Positions 94 to 31,572 of a DNA stretch of 32,000 nt are shown here, piece by piece (positions within the stretch are counted from its first letter, which is position 1; every line of letters begins with the position of its first letter). The stretch covers positions 1-32,000 of the forward strand of contig NZ_SODD01000007.1 in the NCBI RefSeq assembly GCF_004365815.1. The letters are read 5' to 3'. This DNA comes from Breznakia blatticola. GTDB lineage: Bacteria; Bacillota_I; Bacilli_A; Erysipelotrichales; Erysipelotrichaceae. The notes below the pieces were generated by a model, which searched no databases, was not told the origin of the DNA, and worked only from the letters and a program-made list of their open reading frames with translations. The translations under genes were made by a program, and so were the position numbers.

Positions 94-849
94 CAACTTA
101 TAAGTCCGAGCCAAGAAGGAGTACCGCAAGGTGGTCCATTAAGCCCAATCTTATCAAATATCTATTTGGACACATTTGACAAAGAGTTGGAGGAAAGAGG
201 TTTGCGATTTGTAAGATATGCCGATGACTGTAATATATTCGTAAAGAGTGAAATGGCAGCAAATAGAGTAATGAAGTCAATCACATCGTGGCTAGAAAGG
301 AAATTATTCTTAAAAGTGAATGCGACGAAAACGAAAATCGTGAGACCAACAAGAAGTCAATTTCTAGGCTTCACGTTTTTCAAAAATGGTCCCAAATGGA
401 AATGTAAACCTACTGATGATAGGAAAGCAAATCTATACGCGAAACTGAAGGAAGTACTCCTCAGAAAACATGCAACATCAAGACCATTGGCAATAACATT
501 TACAAGAGTAAATCAAATCGTTAGGGGATGGATAAACTACTTTCGTATTGGAAGTATGAAAACTTTCCTTGAAGAATTTGGTGGATGGTTACGACACAAG
601 ATAAGAGTCATAATCATAAAGCAATGGAAGAAACCAAAACGAATCTATATAAATCTAGAAAGATTAAACCGAGCACAACGCTTTAATTTCAAACATGAAG
701 AAATATTTAAGGTTGCAAACTCAAGGTTGGGTTGGTATCGGAGGTGTGGAATGGATATAGTAAATTTTATCCTAAGTCCAAAAGCTCTAGCAGTAAAGAA
801 AAAGGATAGACCAGGGTTGGTCAATCCTCTTCAGTACTATCTAAGATAG
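94..849 (+). pseudogene. Group II intron reverse transcriptase/maturase, 5'-truncated or decayed (RT motifs 4-7 plus maturase X domain only)
   Basis: Frame 1 from 94 reads SQEGVPQGGPLSPILSNIYL ... FVRYADDCNIF (RT motif 4 and the YADD motif 5), then a maturase-like RGWINYFRIG. In-frame stops lie at 70-72 and 91-93. No RT motifs 0-3 are recognisable upstream and there is no HNH/En domain at the C-terminus. Confidence 0.8.
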
Positions 850-869
850 TCGTGTTTAATACATATGTA

Positions 870-940
870 GCGCCGTATACGAGAACCGTACGTACGGTGC
901 AATGGGAGGGGCGAAAGATTTTACTTTCCCTCTACCCTAT
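870..940 (+). ncRNA. Group II intron ribozyme 3' end: domain V (about 870-900) and domain VI (about 903-938) with a bulged branch-point A
   Basis: GCGCCGTATACGAGAACCGTACGTACGGTGC fits the domain V fold (lower stem GCGCCGUAU/GUACGGUGC with a 2-nt bulge). The next hairpin, GGGAGGGG...CCCTCT-A-CCC, leaves A934 unpaired about 6-7 nt before a terminal AT at 939-940. It lies directly after the RT stop codon, as in real introns. Confidence 0.7.
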
Positions 941-5969: not shown

Positions 5970-6482
5970 ATGAAAAAGAGCAGTGTTTTAGAACTTGTAT
6001 TTATGGCGTTTTATGTAGCGTTGTTTATGGTCTTAGATTATATGACCAATATGCTATCGATTTTACAAATGCCACGAGGAGGATCTCTAGGGATTTCGAC
6101 GATTGCCTTATTGATGGCAAGCTATCACTTAGGATGGCAAAAAGGTTTAATGGTTTCTTGTGTATCCATTTTGGCTCAATTTATTACAGGTCCAATGTAT
6201 ACACCGGATTTAATTGGATTCTTGCTTGATTACGGAATTGCGTTCTCAGTATATGGACTTGCTTGTCTATTGCCAAATATTGGCTGGTTTTATACTGGAA
6301 TCTTAGCAACAAACCTTATCCGCTTTATGAGTAGTACTTTGTCAGGTGTTCTTGTATGGGATACACAGTGGTGGGCATCTGTAACGTATAATGCATCGTA
6401 TATGATTCCTACATGTATTCTTGGATTAATTTTAATTCCAGTGTTAGATAATGCATTAAAAAAATACACAAAACGAGTGTAA
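5970..6482 (+). CDS. thiT: ECF-transporter S component, thiamine-specific (ThiT-like)
   Basis: 170 aa with about 6 TM helices, a size and topology typical of ECF S components. It lies directly under a TPP riboswitch, and ecfA1/ecfA2 are present at 30.7 kb in the same window. Confidence 0.75.
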   Translation: MKKSSVLELVFMAFYVALFMVLDYMTNMLSILQMPRGGSLGISTIALLMASYHLGWQKGLMVSCVSILAQFITGPMYTPDLIGFLLDYGIAFSVYGLACLLPNIGWFYTGILATNLIRFMSSTLSGVLVWDTQWWASVTYNASYMIPTCILGLILIPVLDNALKKYTKRV

Positions 6483-23905: not shown

Positions 23906-24865
23906 ATGCAAAATTTTGAACGTGCGAATTTTGAAGTAAAAGAATTTATTGATTCTGAGAATTATGGAAAATTTGTGATTGAACCACTTGAAAGAGGGTT
24001 CGGTACAACGATTGGAAATGCACTTCGCCGTGTATTACTATCTTCCCTACCTGGAGGAGCTATTTTCTCTATTAAGGTTGATGGCGTATTCCATGAATTT
24101 ACATCAATTCCTGGGGTAAAAGAAGATGTTACTTCGATTATCTTAAACCTAAAAAATGTAGTATTGAAAATTGATGATGATGAAATTCACACATTACGTA
24201 TTTCTAAAAAGGGATACGGTGAAGTTCACGCTTCAGATATCGAACTTCCTGATGGAGTTGAAGTGTTAAATGAAGACCTATACATCTGTACAGTTGAACA
24301 AGGTCATACATTTGAAATGGAACTTCAAGCGAAAAGTGGAAGAGGTTACGTTAGTGCTGATCAAAACAAAGCATTATATGCAGGTGCTGGTCAAGCATTA
24401 GGAACAATCTATACAGATGCTATTTTTACACCAATTCAAAAAGTAGCTTACAATGTTGAACCAACACGCGTTGGTCAAAATGCAAACTACGATAAAGTAG
24501 AATTAGAAATCTGGACAGATGGTTCTATTACACCACAAGAATCTATCGCTTTAGGATCTAAAATCTTAATCGACCACTTAGAACTTCTAACAAATGTTCA
24601 CGAAGTTGTAAATGAAATGGATTCAGTGATGAAAGATGTACAAGGTGAAGTTGTAAACAAAGGCCTTGTTATGATGATCGAAGACCTAGATCTTTCTGTT
24701 CGTTCATATAACTGTTTAAAACGTGCAGGTATTCAAACTGTTGAAGAACTTACACAAAAAACAGAAGACGAAATGATGAGAGTTCGTAACTTAGGTAAAA
24801 AATCATTAAAAGAAGTAAAAGACAAGATTTATGATTTGGGGCTTAGCTTCAAATCTTACGAATAG
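23906..24865 (+). CDS. rpoA: DNA-directed RNA polymerase alpha subunit
   Basis: GKFVIEPLERGFGTTIGNALRRVLLSSLPG (N-terminal domain) and LDLSVRSYNCLKRAGIQTVEEL...NLGKKSLKEV (C-terminal domain). Confidence 0.97.
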   Translation: MQNFERANFEVKEFIDSENYGKFVIEPLERGFGTTIGNALRRVLLSSLPGGAIFSIKVDGVFHEFTSIPGVKEDVTSIILNLKNVVLKIDDDEIHTLRISKKGYGEVHASDIELPDGVEVLNEDLYICTVEQGHTFEMELQAKSGRGYVSADQNKALYAGAGQALGTIYTDAIFTPIQKVAYNVEPTRVGQNANYDKVELEIWTDGSITPQESIALGSKILIDHLELLTNVHEVVNEMDSVMKDVQGEVVNKGLVMMIEDLDLSVRSYNCLKRAGIQTVEELTQKTEDEMMRVRNLGKKSLKEVKDKIYDLGLSFKSYE

Positions 24866-24882
24866 AAGGAGTATGAGGTATT

Positions 24883-25248
24883 ATGAGAAATCGTAAACTA
24901 GGACGTAAAGCAGATCACCGTAAAGCAATGCTTAGAAACCTTGCAACTTCAGTAATTATTTCTGAAAGTGTTGAAACTACAGAAATGAAAGCAAAAGAAG
25001 TTAGTTCTGTGGTTGAAAAATTAATCACTCTTGCTAAAAGAGGTGACTTACATGCACGTCGTCAAGCGGCAGCTTATGTACGTGATGTTGTAGCTGATGA
25101 AACTACTGGACAAACAGCTCTACAAAAATTATTCTCTGAGATTGGACCTATGTACCAAGACCGTAACGGGGGATATACAAGAGTTGTAAAAACAAGAAAC
25201 CGTCGTGGTGACAACGCTACAATGGCAATTGTACAATTAGTAAAATAA
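24883..25248 (+). CDS. rplQ: 50S ribosomal protein L17
   Basis: [22 protein letters not shown]...TTEMKAKEV...[25 protein letters not shown]. Confidence 0.97.
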
Positions 25249-25253
25249 TTGAT

Positions 25254-25278
25254 GGAGAACTTCGGTTCTCTTTTTTTG
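25254..25278 (+). terminator. Rho-independent terminator of the ribosomal super-operon
   Basis: GGAGAAC-TTCG-GTTCTCT followed by a T7 run, 6 nt after the rplQ stop codon. Confidence 0.85.
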
Positions 25279-25283
25279 TTTAT

Positions 25284-25319
25284 AAAAAAACGAAAGACAC
25301 CGGAGTAATGTCTTTCGTT
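25284..25319 (-). terminator. Rho-independent terminator of the abi gene (minus strand)
   Basis: On the minus strand, AACGAAAGACA-TTACTCCGG-TGTCTTTCGTT followed by a T7 run. The stem overlaps the abi stop codon. It lies back-to-back with the rplQ terminator. Confidence 0.8.
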
Positions 25320-26259
25320 AATTATCGATATAATATTGTAAATAGAATCCTGTTAAATCGAGTAATATTCGTTGCCAATTATCTTTAAAGCAATAATTTT
25401 TTACAACATCAATGTTTGGAAATCTTGTCATTAATTGAGTGAGTTCCAAATTGAATCGTTGTACTATTGAAGAATCCGGGCAAAGCATTACAGTCACAGA
25501 AAGTAAATAAAAATACGTCTCATTCGATGTACAAGGACCATAAACCTTTTCGAATTCATCAGAATGTAACAATTTAGGTGGTCTTTGTTTGTGTTCAACT
25601 TGGAATAGTCGTTCATAATGGCTACATTTATTACGAAACATACATAAACTTCGATACCAACTAACTAAAAAAGATCGAGCAATTCTTTTGTTTGGGAATC
25701 TAAAATAGCCATTACTTATTTCATCAATATGTTCAAATTTTAGACCCTCCAAAAGAGATGCAACATCTCCAAAAGAAAGAAATTCCATTAGTGCCCATAA
25801 AGGATATTCTCCACTATATTTATATTCATGTGTTTGAATGATTTTACTGTCTGCATGTTTCGATTTGTATGTCTGCATGCACTCCTCAAGATATGAAACA
25901 TTTGAACTACGATAATAAATATCATTACTTTTATAGGATAGAGGTCCAATTTGGTTACATAGATAGTCAGTGATTATTGCCTTAAGACTTACTTCGACAC
26001 TTTCAAGAAGCATAAGTGTACTCCTGCGTAAATACATATCAAATTGATAGCAATCATAGATATCCTCGAAGAATATATCACTTTTAAATTCTTGATCATT
26101 TTCGTAGAAACTGTTAAAGTACCCACTCAATCTATAATAGTTAATGTGACTCAAAGTATAGTATGCACTATTCTCATCTCTAAATTTTAATCCTCTATCA
26201 AGTAGTAAGTCAATTTGTTCAGTTATTGTTAGTGCTGGCTTTCCATTCTTACATTCCAT
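25318..26259 (-). CDS. AbiD/AbiF-type abortive-infection protein (Abi_2 family, HEPN-type RxxxxH motif)
   Basis: 313 aa. The N-terminus KPALTITEQIDLLLDRGLKF...SHINYYRLSGYF matches the Abi_2 hallmark. The C-terminal half has FRNKCSHYERLF (R-x4-H, as in HEPN RNase motifs). It is the only minus-strand gene within a plus-strand run of more than 20 kb. Confidence 0.85.
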   Translation of the reverse strand: MECKNGKPALTITEQIDLLLDRGLKFRDENSAYYTLSHINYYRLSGYFNSFYENDQEFKSDIFFEDIYDCYQFDMYLRRSTLMLLESVEVSLKAIITDYLCNQIGPLSYKSNDIYYRSSNVSYLEECMQTYKSKHADSKIIQTHEYKYSGEYPLWALMEFLSFGDVASLLEGLKFEHIDEISNGYFRFPNKRIARSFLVSWYRSLCMFRNKCSHYERLFQVEHKQRPPKLLHSDEFEKVYGPCTSNETYFYLLSVTVMLCPDSSIVQRFNLELTQLMTRFPNIDVVKNYCFKDNWQRILLDLTGFYLQYYIDN

Positions 26260-26263
26260 TGTG

Positions 26264-26326
26264 CCCCCAAAATATTAAAAAGCCCCAGGCGAGTTAGCTT
26301 CAATGAGAGGCTCCCTGGGTTCTTAC
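26264..26326 (-). ncRNA. Structured 5' leader / candidate small cis RNA upstream of abi (hairpin plus U-tract)
   Basis: The minus strand reads GAA-CCCAGGGAG-(17-nt loop CCUCUCAUUGAAGCUAA)-CUCGCCUGGG-GCUUUUUAAUAUUUU, then GGGGGCACA-AUG. The stem is 9 bp and GC-rich with one bulged G. The element lies between the predicted promoter and the RBS. Confidence 0.45.
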
Positions 26327-26332
26327 ATATGT

Positions 26333-26361
26333 ATAATAACACGAAATGTGAAGAATTGTAA
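26333..26361 (-). promoter_or_regulatory. Candidate abi promoter (minus strand TTACAA-17-TATTAT)
   Basis: On the minus strand, -35 TTACAA (26361-26356), a 17-nt spacer and -10 TATTAT (26338-26333). Confidence 0.45.
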
Positions 26362-26410
26362 CTAAAAGAAATCTTAATTTTAAATTAACAATGTTTTAAA
26401 AATGTTGATG

Positions 26411-26439
26411 TTGTAAAAGATGATGGGTTCTACTACAAT
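26411..26439 (+). promoter_or_regulatory. Candidate promoter of the SseB-like gene (TTGTAA-17-TACAAT), divergent from abi
   Basis: TTGTAA at 26411-26416, a 17-nt spacer and TACAAT at 26434-26439. Confidence 0.45.
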
Positions 26440-26468
26440 GAGTATAGAAAGAGATGAAGGAAGAAATC

Positions 26469-27242
26469 ATGGAAAGAAAAAGCACAAAAGATGCTAGTGC
26501 TTTACGTATAGCACTTGAAAACCTACAAAATCATCCTTGTAAAGCAAGTGAAGTAGAACTTTATGCATGTTTAAAAGATGCACAATTGTATGCCCCAGTA
26601 CATCCAAATCAACATACTTCAAAAAATCATAATGCAAATGTATTGGAATTAGCCACTGATTTTATGATGGTTTTAGATGCATCAAATGATTTATACTATC
26701 CAATTTTCAGTAGCAAAGAGGAACTGTTGAAGTTTACAAGTGAATTACAGCTTGGCTATATGAAAGTACGCTTACAAGATTATGAAAGTTTGCTTCATGG
26801 CCAAAAAGAAGTAAAAGGTGTTGTCTTGGATAAAGAATCCGTAAATTATTCACTGTGTTTAGAAGATATCTTGCATATTTATCATCATGTACAGTGTAGT
26901 GATATTACTAACTTAGAAATACGTGAGATCAAAGATCCAAACCACTATATAAAAGAAGAATTGGTACGTTTATTTAGCAAGATGCCACAAGTTCGTGCTG
27001 CTTATTTACATGAGCTATATTGTGATAAGCAAGCCAGTTATTTACTGATCATTGATAGTGATACTTTTGATGATGTAGCCCAACAAGTAAGTGACTTTCT
27101 GTATCCATTAACGTATGAAAATGGAGATCATGTAGAACTGATTGCGTTAGCAAGTCGTTTTGGTGAAAAAATCACACGTGAAGTCACACCATTTTATGAG
27201 CGAAAACAACGATTGCTGCATATATTACTACCCAAAGAGTAA
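26469..27242 (+). CDS. SseB-family protein (function unknown)
   Basis: About 257 aa. YYPIFSSKEELLKF (compare the FTS..eal block of SseB) and the C-terminal VTPFYERKQRLL (E. coli SseB ends with ..IAPFYERRWGG.. as I recall it). I prefer the ATG at 26469 (AAGGAAG 6 nt upstream) to the ATG at 26454. Confidence 0.55.
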   Translation: MERKSTKDASALRIALENLQNHPCKASEVELYACLKDAQLYAPVHPNQHTSKNHNANVLELATDFMMVLDASNDLYYPIFSSKEELLKFTSELQLGYMKVRLQDYESLLHGQKEVKGVVLDKESVNYSLCLEDILHIYHHVQCSDITNLEIREIKDPNHYIKEELVRLFSKMPQVRAAYLHELYCDKQASYLLIIDSDTFDDVAQQVSDFLYPLTYENGDHVELIALASRFGEKITREVTPFYERKQRLLHILLPKE

Positions 27243-27246
27243 AAAC

Positions 27247-27273
27247 AAAAAGTCTTGAATGCAAGACTTTTTG
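27247..27273 (+). terminator. Rho-independent terminator after the SseB-like gene
   Basis: AAAAGTCTTG-AATG-CAAGACTTTTT. Confidence 0.75.
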
Positions 27274-27279
27274 CTTTCA

Positions 27280-27308
27280 TTGAGTGAAAGCGTTGAATTT
27301 GGTATAAT
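27280..27308 (+). promoter_or_regulatory. Promoter of the M15B/CapA/trmR unit (TTGAGT-17-TGgTATAAT)
   Basis: TTGAGT at 27280-27285, a 17-nt spacer with an extended -10 TG, and TATAAT at 27303-27308. Confidence 0.55.
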
Positions 27309-27333
27309 CGAAATAGAAAAACGAGGGAATACA

Positions 27334-28347
27334 ATGAAAAAGATACTTACATTATGTGCAATCTTCATGTTAGTTGGTTGTAAAGATGTTGGTTGCGAAG
27401 CCATCTTATCAAATGAAGAAAAAAATACATTAAAAGAATATGGTGTACTAGACTATGTTGAAGATGATTGTAAAAACCAAAGAACCGTCCAAAAAATGTT
27501 GCATGATGATTTCAATAAAGACTATATAAAATCGTATTGTGCATTAAATATAAAAAGTACAGATCATGTCAATGATTTAATTGTTGCAGGATTTAGTGAT
27601 AAAGAAATTACTGCATTATTAAAACTAGATAATTTAGATGAAGAACGTATTACACGTTATAAAGCATATACAGATGCAAATACTGAGAAAACGATGAAAG
27701 ATATTGTTTTGGCTGTTAATTTAGATATGGATGAAGAAGCTTATGAGAATATCCAAATCATCGATGATGAAAGCTTGGATGTACTAATCAGCAAACATTA
27801 TGGTTTAGCTGAAGGATATATTCCAAGTGACTTAGTTGATATTACATCGGTTTGCCAACAAGGAGTCGATTACTCTTGTTCGACAATGGATAAGCAACAA
27901 CTTCGCAAAGAAGCAGCAGCTGATTATGAAGCTTTTGCTAGTTATGCAAAGGAAAAGAAAGGGTATGATATTGTTTCTATCGCATCATATCGCAGTTATG
28001 ACTACCAAAAGAATTTATATAATTATTGGTTGAATGAAAAAGGTCAAGAATATGCAGATACATATTATGCTAGACCCGGTCATAGTGAACATAATGGTGG
28101 ATTAGCTATTGATATTAGTGTTAGTGAATTTCCTTTCAATGAACTTGATACGTTTGAAGATTATGAATGGATTGTCGAAACGATGAAGGATTATGGCTTT
28201 ATACTGCGTTATCCAGAAGATAAAGTAGATCTTACAGGATATGGTGCAGAAAGTTGGCATTTCCGCTATGTTGGTAAAAAACTAGCGAAGGAATTATATG
28301 CCGATGGATTAACGCTAGATGAGTATCATGCATTGGAGGCACGATAA
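27334..28347 (+). CDS. M15B-family D-alanyl-D-alanine carboxypeptidase (VanY-like) lipoprotein
   Basis: The real start is the ATG at 27334 (MKKILTLCAIFMLVGC, signal peptide plus lipobox, RBS GAGGGA). Zn-ligand motifs are SEHNGGLAIDI and AESWHFRYVG. The upstream 25 codons in the ORF track run through the terminator and promoter. Confidence 0.8.
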   Translation: MKKILTLCAIFMLVGCKDVGCEAILSNEEKNTLKEYGVLDYVEDDCKNQRTVQKMLHDDFNKDYIKSYCALNIKSTDHVNDLIVAGFSDKEITALLKLDNLDEERITRYKAYTDANTEKTMKDIVLAVNLDMDEEAYENIQIIDDESLDVLISKHYGLAEGYIPSDLVDITSVCQQGVDYSCSTMDKQQLRKEAAADYEAFASYAKEKKGYDIVSIASYRSYDYQKNLYNYWLNEKGQEYADTYYARPGHSEHNGGLAIDISVSEFPFNELDTFEDYEWIVETMKDYGFILRYPEDKVDLTGYGAESWHFRYVGKKLAKELYADGLTLDEYHALEAR

Positions 28348-29489
28348 TGAAAAAACTTAAGATTGCATTACTATGTTTGTTTTTAGTTGCATGTAGTTCT
28401 CCTGCAAAAGAAGATACAACAAAAAAAGAAGAAGTAAAAGACACAACTGTTTCCTTCTTTGCAGTTGGTGATAATTTACTTCATGATACCATTAATGCAG
28501 AAGCAAAAACCTACGGGGAAACATCAGGACGTAATTATGATTATCGTCCATTTTATAAAAATTTTGAAAAGCAAATTCAAGGAGCAGATGTTGCTTTCAT
28601 CAATCAAGAGACTATCGTTGGTGGTGAAGAACTGGTAATTTCAGGATATCCAAATTTTAACTCACCAAAAGAAGTAGCATCAGATTTAGCTACTACTGGA
28701 TTTGATTTAGTGAACTTAGCAAGTAATCATAGTTTGGACCGTTCAAGCCAAGGAATTATCAACGCCTTGCAAACCTTTGATTTCGAAAAAAATCTCACAG
28801 TTGCAGGAATCAATGATAGCGAAGAACGTAAAAATGAAATAGCGACATTTAAACAAAAAGGTATTACCTTCTCATTTCTAGCATACACGTATGGAACCAA
28901 TGGAATTATTCCTGAAAATGCATACGAAGTAAATTACTTTGGTGATGAACGTATTACAAGTGATGTCGCAAAAGCTAAAGAAGTTAGTGATGTTGTGATT
29001 GTCTCTGCACACTGGGGAGATGAAAACGCATTTGAACTAAATGATATGCAACAACACTATGCACAAGTATTTGCAGATGCAGGTGTTGATGTCGTCATTG
29101 GAACGCATCCACATGTTGTACAACCAGACACGTGGGTAGATGGAAAAGATGGACATAAAACATATGTGATTTATTCCCTGGGAAATTTTTTAGGTGGTAT
29201 GCTTGATACGAAAAACATTGTCGGAAGTTATGCAACCTTTGATATTGTAAAAGATGGAAAAACGGGTGATATATCAGTTGAAAATGAAGATGTAAAACCA
29301 CTAGTTATCGATTTCCATGGTAACCAAAACAATATTTTGGATGAACGTTATGATTATACAGTTCTACCACTTACAAAAGAGTACGATAAAGTAGCAAGCG
29401 ATCATGTCTTACATGGATATGAAGGACAAGTCGTATCCTATGAGGAACTATTAAGGATGTGGACCTATGGAACAAAACGTGAAATTTAA
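28347..29489 (+). CDS. CapA-family (PGA_cap metallophosphoesterase-like) lipoprotein
   Basis: MKKLKIALLCLFLVAC has a lipobox. FFAVGDNLLHD, NLASNHSLD, SAHWGDE and GTHPHVVQP are CapA/YwtB-type blocks. The start overlaps the upstream stop codon (TAATG). Confidence 0.8.
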   Translation: MKKLKIALLCLFLVACSSPAKEDTTKKEEVKDTTVSFFAVGDNLLHDTINAEAKTYGETSGRNYDYRPFYKNFEKQIQGADVAFINQETIVGGEELVISGYPNFNSPKEVASDLATTGFDLVNLASNHSLDRSSQGIINALQTFDFEKNLTVAGINDSEERKNEIATFKQKGITFSFLAYTYGTNGIIPENAYEVNYFGDERITSDVAKAKEVSDVVIVSAHWGDENAFELNDMQQHYAQVFADAGVDVVIGTHPHVVQPDTWVDGKDGHKTYVIYSLGNFLGGMLDTKNIVGSYATFDIVKDGKTGDISVENEDVKPLVIDFHGNQNNILDERYDYTVLPLTKEYDKVASDHVLHGYEGQVVSYEELLRMWTYGTKREI

Positions 29490-30066
29490 GTTACTTGAAA
29501 TGGAATCGTATGCTTCTTTACATCAAGTTCCAATTATGCAAAAAGAAGGAATTGAGTTTCTACAAACATACATTAAAGAGCATAAGGTAAAACGCATACT
29601 AGAATTAGGAAGTGCAATTGGTTACTCTGCTATCCAAATGGCAATAAGTGATCCAGATGTCACAGTTGATACAGTTGAACGTGATGATGTACGCTATCAA
29701 GTTGCGCAAGCAAATATTAAAGCATGTAACTTAGAAAATCGTATCCACTTATTTCATGAAGATGCACTTTTCTTTGAAACGAATCAAAGCTATGATTTGA
29801 TCTTTATTGATGCCGCGAAAGCACAATACATAAAGTTCTTTGAACGTTATGAAAGTAATGTAAAAGTAAATGGAGTCATGATTAGTGATAACTTGGAATT
29901 CCATGGAATGGTACACGATATAGAACATATTAAAAATCGTAACACAAGACAGTTGGTGCGTAAGATCTTAAAATTTCGTGATTACTTACTTGAACGTAAA
30001 GATTTTGAAACAACTTTCTATGATATTGGTGATGGAATTGCAGTAAGTAAAAAACTTGTATTTTGA
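29467..30066 (+). CDS. trmR: Class I SAM-dependent O-methyltransferase, YrrM/TrmR-like
   Basis: HQVPIMQKEGIEFLQTYI...ILELGSAIGYSAIQMA...DLIFIDAAKAQY...GDGIAVSKK is collinear with B. subtilis YrrM as I recall it. It overlaps the capA-like 3' end by 23 nt if the ATG at 29467 is used. Confidence 0.7.
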   Translation: MEQNVKFKLLEMESYASLHQVPIMQKEGIEFLQTYIKEHKVKRILELGSAIGYSAIQMAISDPDVTVDTVERDDVRYQVAQANIKACNLENRIHLFHEDALFFETNQSYDLIFIDAAKAQYIKFFERYESNVKVNGVMISDNLEFHGMVHDIEHIKNRNTRQLVRKILKFRDYLLERKDFETTFYDIGDGIAVSKKLVF

Positions 30067-30126
30067 TGAAAGACAGATGGAAACACTCTGTGCTATAATG
30101 TACATATCTATTTATGGAGGATAACT

Positions 30127-30645
30127 ATGAAGAAAACATTAGGATTACTTGCAGCACTAACGGCAGCAGCTGCTGTAGCTGTATATAAATTATCAAAAGA
30201 CGATGAAAAGAAAATTAAAGAATTAGATGATAGCAAAGAAAAAATCTTACGTTCAGTTGAAGAGCAAGGATTTGAACCTGTAGTTACTGACAAAGAAGAA
30301 ACAGGTTTTGTTTCAAATGCTTACCCACATTTAACAGAAGCAGATCTAATTGAACTGACAAAAAAGAACGATGAGATGTTTGCAACAATTGCCGACTTGC
30401 AACCAACAGACGAATATCCAATTCAACATATGGTGCAATTTGCAAAACCAATTGATTTAGAAGAGTTCAAGAACATCGTAATCTCTGAAGGATATGTGAT
30501 TACAGGTGGAGAAAAAGAGAACGAATTATTAGTTCTACACATTTCAAAAATGGACCATGATGACATCAGTGCAAAAGTGTTCTATCTTGCAAACTTAGCA
30601 AAAGCACATGATGGTGTATACGAAGGATGGATTTGTAAGAAGTAG
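30127..30645 (+). CDS. Hypothetical protein with an N-terminal hydrophobic anchor/signal and an RraB-like C-terminal domain
   Basis: MKKTLGLLAALTAAAAVAVY is hydrophobic. The C-terminal YPIQHMVQF...EGYVIT...LANLAKAHDGVYEGW parallels E. coli RraB (YTIEHHL...GYEVT...LAEKFDVEYDGW) from memory. Confidence 0.45.
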   Translation: MKKTLGLLAALTAAAAVAVYKLSKDDEKKIKELDDSKEKILRSVEEQGFEPVVTDKEETGFVSNAYPHLTEADLIELTKKNDEMFATIADLQPTDEYPIQHMVQFAKPIDLEEFKNIVISEGYVITGGEKENELLVLHISKMDHDDISAKVFYLANLAKAHDGVYEGWICKK

Positions 30646-30667
30646 TGAAATTTCACTGCTTTTTTTT
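30644..30667 (+). terminator. Terminator-like hairpin plus T8 run
   Basis: AGTGA-AATT-TCACT followed by GC and TTTTTTTT, overlapping the stop codon. The stem is short. Confidence 0.5.
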
Positions 30668-30692
30668 GACCGTTTTGACAAGTGAATATACA

Positions 30693-30721
30693 TTGTGTCA
30701 TGACAGGAAAAGTAGTATAAT
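30693..30721 (+). promoter_or_regulatory. Candidate ecfA promoter (TTGTGT-17-TATAAT)
   Basis: TTGTGT at 30693-30698, a 17-nt spacer and TATAAT at 30716-30721. Confidence 0.45.
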
Positions 30722-30750
30722 TAGTTTAATTTTGAGAAAGGAATGATGGC

Positions 30751-31572
30751 ATGATTAAAGTAGAAGATTTACATTTCAATTACGATGAACATGAAGAAAC
30801 AATCAAAGGTGTAAACTTTACAGTGGAAGCAGGAAGTTATACATCAATTATCGGTCACAATGGAAGTGGGAAGAGTACCATTGCAAAATTACTCATTGGT
30901 TTACTCGAGAAATCGAGCGGTTCCATTGAAATTGACGGAATGGAACTTAATGAAGAAAACTTATATGCCATTCGTTCGTTGATTGGTGTGGTCTTTCAAA
31001 ATCCAGACAATCAATTTATCGGTTCAACAGTAGCTGATGATATTGCCTTTGGTTTAGAAAATAAACAAGTACCACAAGAAAACATGCAAGCAATTATCGA
31101 CAAGTTTTCAAAGGTTGTTGGTATGTATGATTTTCTAGATCGTGAACCTACAAGTTTATCCGGTGGGCAAAAACAAAGAGTTGCAATTGCTGGTGTACTA
31201 GCCATGGATTTAAAAGTGATTATTCTTGATGAAGCAGCAAGTATGCTTGATCCACGTGGAAAAAAAGAAATTCATGAACTAATTAATAAATTACATGAAG
31301 AAGAAAATCTAACTGTCATTTCGATTACACACGATATGGAAGAAGTATTACGTAGTGATAAAGTCATCGTTCTTGAACATGGACATGTGAAGATGAGTGG
31401 AACACCTGCAGAAATCTTACAGCATGAAGATGAGTTAGTTGCTTTAGAACTTGATATTCCTTTTGTCTATAAAGTGCAAAAAGAACTAAAAGAAATTGGG
31501 ATTGAAATGGATACCCAAGTTAGCATTGAAGGAGTGGTGGAACAGTTATGTCAATTACATTCAAAAATCTAA
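30751..31572 (+). CDS. ecfA1: ECF transporter ATPase subunit EcfA1 (CbiO-type)
   Basis: Walker [10 protein letters not shown], signature LSGGQKQR, Walker B ILDEAAS and H-loop ITHD. It sits at the start of the usual ecfA1-ecfA2 pair. Confidence 0.9.

Follow-up and report, generated by a model that had tools for sequence, protein, structure and literature searches.

A divergent abiF RNA motif in the leader of an Abi_2 HEPN protein gene of Breznakia

The abi locus and its protein

We analysed a stretch of 32,000 nucleotides from Breznakia blatticola (referred to as the window), in which a gene for a 313-aa Abi family protein lies on the minus strand. Reading of the sequence gave the minus-strand order -35, -10, hairpin, U-rich tail, RBS and ATG, and the sequence together with a scan placed the promoter, hairpin, U-tract, RBS and ATG where the first-pass annotation had described them (Table 1). 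The distance from the end of the outer stem (P1) to the ATG was 24 nt.

Table 1. Features of the abi locus in the window
Feature	Coordinates	Strand	Details and basis
-35-like box	26356..26362	-	GTTACA (spacer 18 nt) or TTACAA (spacer 17 nt); consensus scan, 9/12 positions
TG-extended -10 box, TGtTATTAT	26333..26341	-	scan; ends 13 nt before P1
Spacer from -10 box to hairpin, 13 nt	26320-26332	-	
Short 5' leader GUAAGAA, up to P1	26320..26326	-	
Hairpin, GC-rich	26284..26319	-	begins 13 nt after the -10 box
P1 5' arm CCCAGG, 6 bp	26314..26319	-	gapless alignment to model R1
1-nt 5' bulge, G	26313	-	G also in the subclade of the window; A in the Rfam consensus
P2 5' arm AGC, 3 bp	26310..26312	-	alignment and family pairing
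11-nt terminal loop CUCUCAUUGAA, starting with CUCU	26299..26309	-	CCUCU invariant in the 11 seed sequences
P2 3' arm GCU	26296..26298	-	model alignment, pairing
6-nt 3' internal loop AACUCG	26290..26295	-	length conserved, sequence clade-specific
P1 3' arm CCUGGG	26284..26289	-	model alignment, pairing
U-rich tail GCUUUUUAAUAUUUU	26269..26283	-	6 T in the 10 nt after P1
RBS GGGGG	26264..26268	-	4 nt before the ATG; read from the sequence
ATG of the 313-aa ORF	26259	-	
abiF/abiD-type gene, 313-aa Abi_2 HEPN protein	25318..26259	-	Pfam, PADLOC, PDB, AF2
Intrinsic terminator of the abi gene	25289..25319	-	scan; overlaps the abi stop codon
Intrinsic terminator of rplQ	25254-25271	+	scan; back to back with the abi terminator, the genes being convergent

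Judged from its sequence, the promoter is best explained as a sigma-A-type promoter, although its -35-like box, taken singly, is a weak match. Transcription would start near 26326 (as estimated from its distance to the -10 box), and in other loci an A-rich flank, AACAGAR or AACAUA, occupies the position of the short 5' leader. No obvious second promoter was seen between the U-tract and the RBS, either in the sequence or in the scan.

The abi gene, with rplQ on one side and an sseB-like gene on the other, stands by itself just past the ribosomal-protein/rpoA operon. The sseB-like gene (26454..27242, plus strand) is the next gene upstream; it is divergent, and the intergenic region is common to both genes. 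We observed no other defence or mobile genes near this locus, which is chromosomal and lies beside ribosomal genes, and its defence role is for that reason only putative. Around the cassette there were no convincing flanking repeats of the kind expected of an insertion footprint, and the composition showed only a mild GC dip. Some relatives are found in defence or mobile contexts, whereas the window locus is without such neighbours: GmrSD-like and Abi_alpha genes adjoin the Abi_2 gene in L294 (1-1212), and in L005 (1-5215) Abi_2 is accompanied by genes for a PemK toxin and a phage integrase.

In Firmicutes, an ecfA-type ABC ATPase gene usually lies directly after rplQ. The window has an ABC ATPase gene at 30751..31572 (plus strand), not directly after rplQ, and the interval from rplQ to this gene holds the abi cassette together with sseB-like, VanY, PGA_cap, O-methyltransferase and RraB-like genes. 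The stretch 26454-31572 (plus strand) may be a variable region.

The 313-aa protein is an Abi_2/AbiD/AbiF HEPN protein with the fold of PbAbiF. It contains the Abi_2 domain PF07751 (Pfam, E=5.7e-37) and matches the AbiD model of PADLOC (E=3.4e-64), and the database annotation of the exact protein is 'Abi family protein [Breznakia]'. The RNxxxH motif of HEPN proteins is at R209-H214, with R209, N210 and H214 invariant in 29 homologues. By sequence, the protein matched one solved structure, PDB 8VZ6_A, an entry entitled 'PbAbiF dimer bound to ncRNA' (E=2.5e-14, about 20% identity), and the HEPN motifs were aligned (MFRNKCSHYE in the window, LTRNSCCHHA in 8VZ6_A). When an AF2 model of the 313-aa protein (pLDDT 88.5) was compared using Foldseek, 8VZ6_A was the sole PDB match at E<=0.001 (TM 0.74/0.78, E=3.3e-11). 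The protein is predicted to be a HEPN RNase toxin, with toxicity assigned by analogy with its relatives.

Homology of the leader hairpin with abiF RNA

The abiF RNA is Rfam family RF03085, with the consensus CCCGCCAAGCCUCUCAACGAUGCUCAAAUCGGCGGGU and the structure <<<<<<-<<<___________>>>------>>>>>>: in Rfam notation; at the terminal loop the consensus reads CUCUCAACGAU. In a 121-nt scan, the Rfam model matched the window hairpin over its full length (positions 1-37, at 26284..26318 on the minus strand) with 15.5 bits and E=1.8. The gathering score of this family is 37 bits, and the hairpin did not reach it, so that routine annotation misses the abiF RNA here. A 2-kb Rfam scan gave no abiF match on the abi strand, and neither did an Rfam scan of the leaders of three homologues give any match. 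Since the score from Rfam's own model is only 15.5 bits, family membership rests on a broader model, R1.

At gathering thresholds, the whole-window Rfam scan returned nothing beyond a TPP riboswitch and a domain of a group II intron. The riboswitch (RF00059, 5818-5929, plus strand, 68.7 bits) lies directly upstream of a YuaJ/ThiT-type gene (5970..6482), and a TPP riboswitch with a thiamine transporter gene is an ordinary arrangement. The group II intron is present as a 3' end (166-940, plus strand), with an ORF for RT and maturase (GIIM) at 166..849 that appears cut by the window start, and with the Intron_gpII domain match at 868-940 (plus strand, 41.3 bits). Matches to preQ1-II (on the opposite strand, 18.8 bits), a snoRNA and CRISPR-DR were below threshold and were set aside as chance.

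We read the upstream regions of 165 homologous loci for a recurring element. The element that recurs has an outer stem of variable sequence that stays complementary, one unpaired base and a 3-bp inner stem (P2). The loop begins with CUCU and is either 11 nt long or carries an inserted hairpin; six unpaired 3' bases, the closing stem and a U-tract follow. P2 occurred as CGC/GCG, AGC/GCU, CAC/GUG and UGC/GCA, with 99.3% of cells paired.

The covariance model R1 was made from 11 canonical instances of this element. Its seed left out the window, the identical copies L002 and L003, and the closest relative L004, and four of the seed loci are RF03085 matches at or above the gathering score. In the window, R1 matched 26319..26278 on the minus strand with 34.0 bits (E=2.2e-7), gapless over 42 positions. 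This was the one significant match over the 32 kb (both strands, filters off), and the runner-up scored 12.6 bits. Elsewhere, R1 gave 92 matches, spread over 90 of the remaining 164 loci; every match was on the strand of the gene and directly upstream of an Abi_2 gene.

A scan of genome contigs with the single protein found only one distant locus. A second protein search, made via the nearest homologue, added five further proteins of the window's subclade, and the R1 motif was present in all five leaders (22.7-36.7 bits). The leader of L004 gave no R1 match even with filters off, because it has a 21-nt loop and a G-U pair in P2; its membership comes from reading by eye and a pattern parse. As a positive control we used phiC2, a C. 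difficile phage with a homologue of the antitoxin RNA RCd22, where R1 scored 25.0 and 10.8 bits, both lower than in the window.

Element by element, the window sequence reads CCCAGG-G-AGC-CUCUCAUUGAA-GCU-AACUCG-CCUGGG-G, and it aligns position for position with the RF03085 consensus. The first-pass annotation had raised homology to an AbiF-linked ncRNA as something it could not verify, and this alignment, along with the presence of the element in the five closest relatives, bears the homology out. The window hairpin thus belongs to a known RNA family, in which it is divergent and had gone unannotated, and its partner belongs to a known toxin family.

The same annotation had drawn the hairpin as a 9-bp stem with a 17-nt loop. 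The outer 6 bp of this drawing are conserved, but the GAG/CUC inner helix and the 17-nt loop are not. The three pairs of that helix could be made in 12/42, 2/45 and 19/44 sequences, and it was rejected as the conserved form. When the subclade leaders were inspected by eye, L004 could form GGG/CUC and L294 (AAACGA) could not; L289 and L290 were similar. Since the subclade leaders do not maintain it, the GAG/CUC alternative was treated as lineage-specific or incidental. With the window RNA folded singly, the extended 9-bp stem came to -12.1 to -12.9 kcal/mol, as against -8.2 kcal/mol for the consensus fold; the 9-bp pairing with its 17-nt loop can form and is near the single-sequence MFE.

Conservation upstream of homologues was accompanied by covariation. 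In a 49-sequence alignment that included the window, and that was fitted to the model (which biases the pair counts towards the structure), 99.5% of the cells of P1 and P2 were paired, as compared with 34-59% in slid controls, and compensatory double changes were seen in 8/9 pairs. All six P1 pairs covary, and no shuffle equalled the observed covariation score. RNAalifold by itself gave the same P1+P2 structure. Between the window and L004 (CCUCGG/CCGAGG), two P1 pairs are altered on both sides.

The surroundings of the motif are conserved as well. A -10-like TANNNT ending 6-20 nt before P1 was present in 74 of 75 distinct leaders (24% in the background), with the mode at 12-13 nt. At least five T in the 10 nt after P1 were found in 97% of 75 distinct instances (16% in the background). 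The conserved unit is the promoter, a short leader, the motif and the U-tract, and then the RBS and gene.

We observed that the RNA subclasses (defined by P2 type and internal-loop sequence) track the protein clades. A protein and its nearest neighbour agreed in RNA class in 76 of 116 cases; 14 would be expected by chance, and the highest count among 1000 shuffles was 28. This tracking fits cognate recognition; co-inheritance of linked elements would be expected to leave the same pattern.

In the CAC/GUG 'CAAAYG' subclass (L078, L081, L084, L029, L071 and L085; leaders at about 1436-1500), only 5-8 nt separate P1 from the start codon, and a Shine-Dalgarno sequence of its own was not visible in the leaders. 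The purine-rich 3' arm of P1 (GAGGGAG or GGGGAG) would then be the RBS, so that in this subclass the antitoxin hairpin may mask translation initiation. L112 has two tandem abiF motifs about 60 nt apart (1360-1400 and 1422-1462), RCd22-like, for one Abi_2 gene, and L025 has two motifs about 430 nt apart (996-1038 and 1430-1474), also for one Abi_2 gene. A DNA pattern used to look for further subclass members in viral contigs (GCCT..GCTAACTCNCC) picked out 120 stretches; 0/100 of those screened were confirmed by the model, and the pattern matches were put down to chance.

When 19 homologous loci in which the element is visible by eye were compared with the Rfam model, four reached the RF03085 cut-off (L028 with 46.7 bits, L038 with 45.0, L060 with 42.8 and L068 with 41.1), eight scored below it and seven had no match. 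The Rfam seed seems narrow, mainly of the AGC/GCU and CAAAUC class. As RF03085 covers a narrow slice of the family, antitoxin RNAs of this kind are under-reported in routine annotation and would be recovered with a broader model. The main text of Weinberg et al. 2017 does not mention abiF.

Proposed function and alternative explanations

AbiF with an upstream ncRNA has been shown experimentally to be a type III toxin-antitoxin system, in which the RNA is a premature terminator too (PMC12373285). Transcription of the RCd22 RNA begins at the abiF promoter and in most cases stops at a terminator before the gene, and deletion of this RNA in C. difficile raised abiF mRNA 17-fold (PMC12373285). The toxicity of AbiFCd was neutralised by RCd22 in cis and in trans, and the RNA co-purified with the protein; mutations that broke the stem abolished the antitoxin activity and compensatory mutations brought it back (PMC12373285). 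PbAbiF was the subject of Zilberzwige-Tal et al. (Cell 2025), as attributed in the reviews PMC12737573 and PMC13064643. In their summaries it is a dimer with one ncRNA per monomer blocking the HEPN site (PDB 8VZ6), and the inhibitory nucleotides of PbAbiFr are placed in a single-stranded bulge (PMC12737573). The first-pass annotation was therefore correct in connecting AbiF with an ncRNA (PMC12373285; also in the two reviews, PMC12737573 and PMC13064643).

We consider it very probable that the locus encodes an AbiF-type (Abi_2/AbiD/F) module of two parts, a type III toxin-antitoxin system that is also an abortive-infection system. The protein family and fold, the RNA homology with covariation, the position, the promoter spacing and the U-tract were demonstrated for the locus itself. 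RNA-protein binding, neutralisation of the toxin, partial termination, toxicity and anti-phage activity would be expected by analogy with the relatives. The proposal made at first pass was that the abi transcript carries its own RNA antitoxin or attenuator, with the layout of a type III system and a single RNA unit, and the homology to abiF RNA supports this proposal.

In the mechanism that we propose, the promoter would drive a transcript that begins with one abiF RNA motif. Most transcripts would probably stop at the U-tract right after P1, yielding a small RNA of about 50-58 nt, and a minority would read through into the RBS and the HEPN RNase gene. The small RNA would bind the AbiF dimer, one per monomer, and block the RNxxxH active site, so that the cell would tolerate the toxin. 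By mapping from the PbAbiFr work, the 6-nt 3' internal loop AACUCG would be the protein-contacting segment. If the RNA supply dropped or the complex was disturbed (for example by phage infection), free AbiF would cleave RNA and arrest growth.

The U-rich tail (26269..26283) is, from its sequence and place, likely an intrinsic termination or attenuation site, P1 being followed, after GC, by U5. A simple terminator scan did not call the hairpin, because the loop limit of that scan is 8 nt. Since a U-tract right after P1 is a conserved feature of the family, the element probably serves both as a terminator and as an RNA bound by the protein. The first-pass argument that the large loop speaks for a protein-contacted RNA and against a plain terminator was thus half right: contact with the protein is probable, but the U-tract is conserved.

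An extension of this model, which we hold to be unlikely, is that at this locus, and at most single-motif loci, the antitoxin hairpin itself is the terminator, as P1 abuts the U-tract, and that AbiF binding competes with the terminator-competent fold. One fold would then make the antitoxin and also limit the toxin mRNA. In the free form of the Breznakia RNA, the extended 9-bp stem (GAG/CUC) would use up part of P2 and of the 3' internal loop. As AbiF binding should need P2 and an open loop, it could compete with the terminator-competent fold, and if this were true there would be feedback between toxin occupancy and read-through.

An unlikely alternative is that the hairpin is purely a cis-acting attenuator in the 5' UTR, which as an intrinsic terminator would only limit transcription of a harmful gene, and that the RNA, once released, does not work as an antitoxin in trans. 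The nearly universal U-tract directly after P1 is in keeping with such a role, as is the preference of the free window RNA for the 9-bp terminator-like stem, and the 17-fold rise of abiF mRNA on deletion of RCd22 means that a cis effect is real in that system (PMC12373285). However, a plain terminator needs no CUCU loop, fixed 6-nt internal loop or fixed bulge, nor does it need clade-specific loop sequences that track the protein clade, and the relatives work in trans as protein-bound RNAs (PMC12373285; PDB 8VZ6). The cis attenuator and trans antitoxin roles are also not mutually exclusive.

The hairpin could also be a chance or generic stabilising 5' UTR structure, unrelated to abiF RNA. The fold of the 96-nt leader had a z-score of -0.08 against shuffled sequence, the Rfam score is far under the cut-off, and the scan came upon promoter-like sites often in this AT-rich DNA (15, where 8.5 were expected). 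Taken alone, the hairpin and promoter features of the window are not above chance, and it is the comparative evidence that lifts the hairpin above it. An independent model matched the hairpin gaplessly over its full length at E=2.2e-7, the -10 box and the U-tract lie at the distances that are modal in the family, and the element is in 5/5 of the closest protein relatives, with compensatory changes in P1. These observations make a chance structure very improbable, and we regard this explanation as effectively refuted.

That the hairpin terminates a neighbouring gene or regulates the divergent sseB-like gene is extremely improbable, even with the intergenic region common to both genes, since no minus-strand gene lies upstream for it to terminate (as the first-pass annotation had also pointed out), the plus strand reads the stem and then TTCTTAC with no T-tract, rplQ and abi have their own terminators (25254-25319), and elsewhere the element accompanies Abi_2 genes irrespective of what lies next to them.

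The AbiF-type module remains our reading of the locus, and it provides a name and a likely mechanism for an unannotated 5' leader. It also extends the host range of AbiF-type RNA-protein toxin-antitoxin modules by an insect-gut Erysipelotrichaceae chromosome. The AbiF-type lineage has been proposed as the ancestor of Cas13. Since the biology of AbiF and its RNA is established in relatives, the finding does not change current understanding.

Comparison with known systems

ToxIN and AbiQ share with the window the order of promoter, RNA antitoxin, terminator-like element and endoRNase toxin, the assignment in the window being made by homology. In those systems the RNA inhibits the protein by direct binding, and the same logic is proposed for the window by analogy. 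However, ToxI and antiQ are tandem repeats cleaved by the toxin, and ToxN is not a HEPN protein, whereas the window has one unit and a HEPN toxin. We found no tandem repeats of the unit in 24800-26900, and a single copy of R1 in the window. The lack of tandem repeats indicated that the window system is not ToxIN-like.

The PbAbiF-AbiFr pair (PDB 8VZ6) and the window protein have the same fold, with the RNxxxH motifs aligned, and in both a single ncRNA unit lies upstream of the gene. The two were compared at the protein level; in the Pb RNA, the inhibitory nucleotides are described as C32 and U38.

RCd22/AbiFCd is encoded in the C. difficile prophage phi027 (Saunier et al. 2025, PMC12373285). 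Both this system and the window have an Abi_2 HEPN protein with RNxxxH (the two proteins are about 29% identical), and in both the motif RNA comes from the sigma-A promoter of the toxin (predicted in the window), with a U-tract or terminator before the RBS. Such a layout is compatible with a short RNA and a read-through mRNA. RCd22 has two motifs 19 nt apart and a separate terminator hairpin, seen in the phiC2 homologue, as published, whereas in the window there is a single motif, with the U-tract lying directly against its P1 stem. RCd22 also belongs to a prophage lysis module, while the window locus is chromosomal and lies between rplQ and an sseB-like gene.

A further comparison is with RF03085 itself (Weinberg et al. 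2017), which has the same architecture and spacing and the same site, on the strand of the gene and upstream of Abi_2. The shared architecture comprises a 6-bp P1, a 1-nt bulge, a 3-bp P2, an 11-nt CUCU loop, a 6-nt 3' loop and a U. The two differ in the bulge (A in RF03085, G in the window) and in the internal loop (CAAAUC as against AACUCG), and P1 differs in sequence but stays complementary. Together, these comparisons show that the window differs from the known cases in its sub-cut-off score, its single motif, its G bulge with AACUCG, and its chromosomal site among housekeeping genes.
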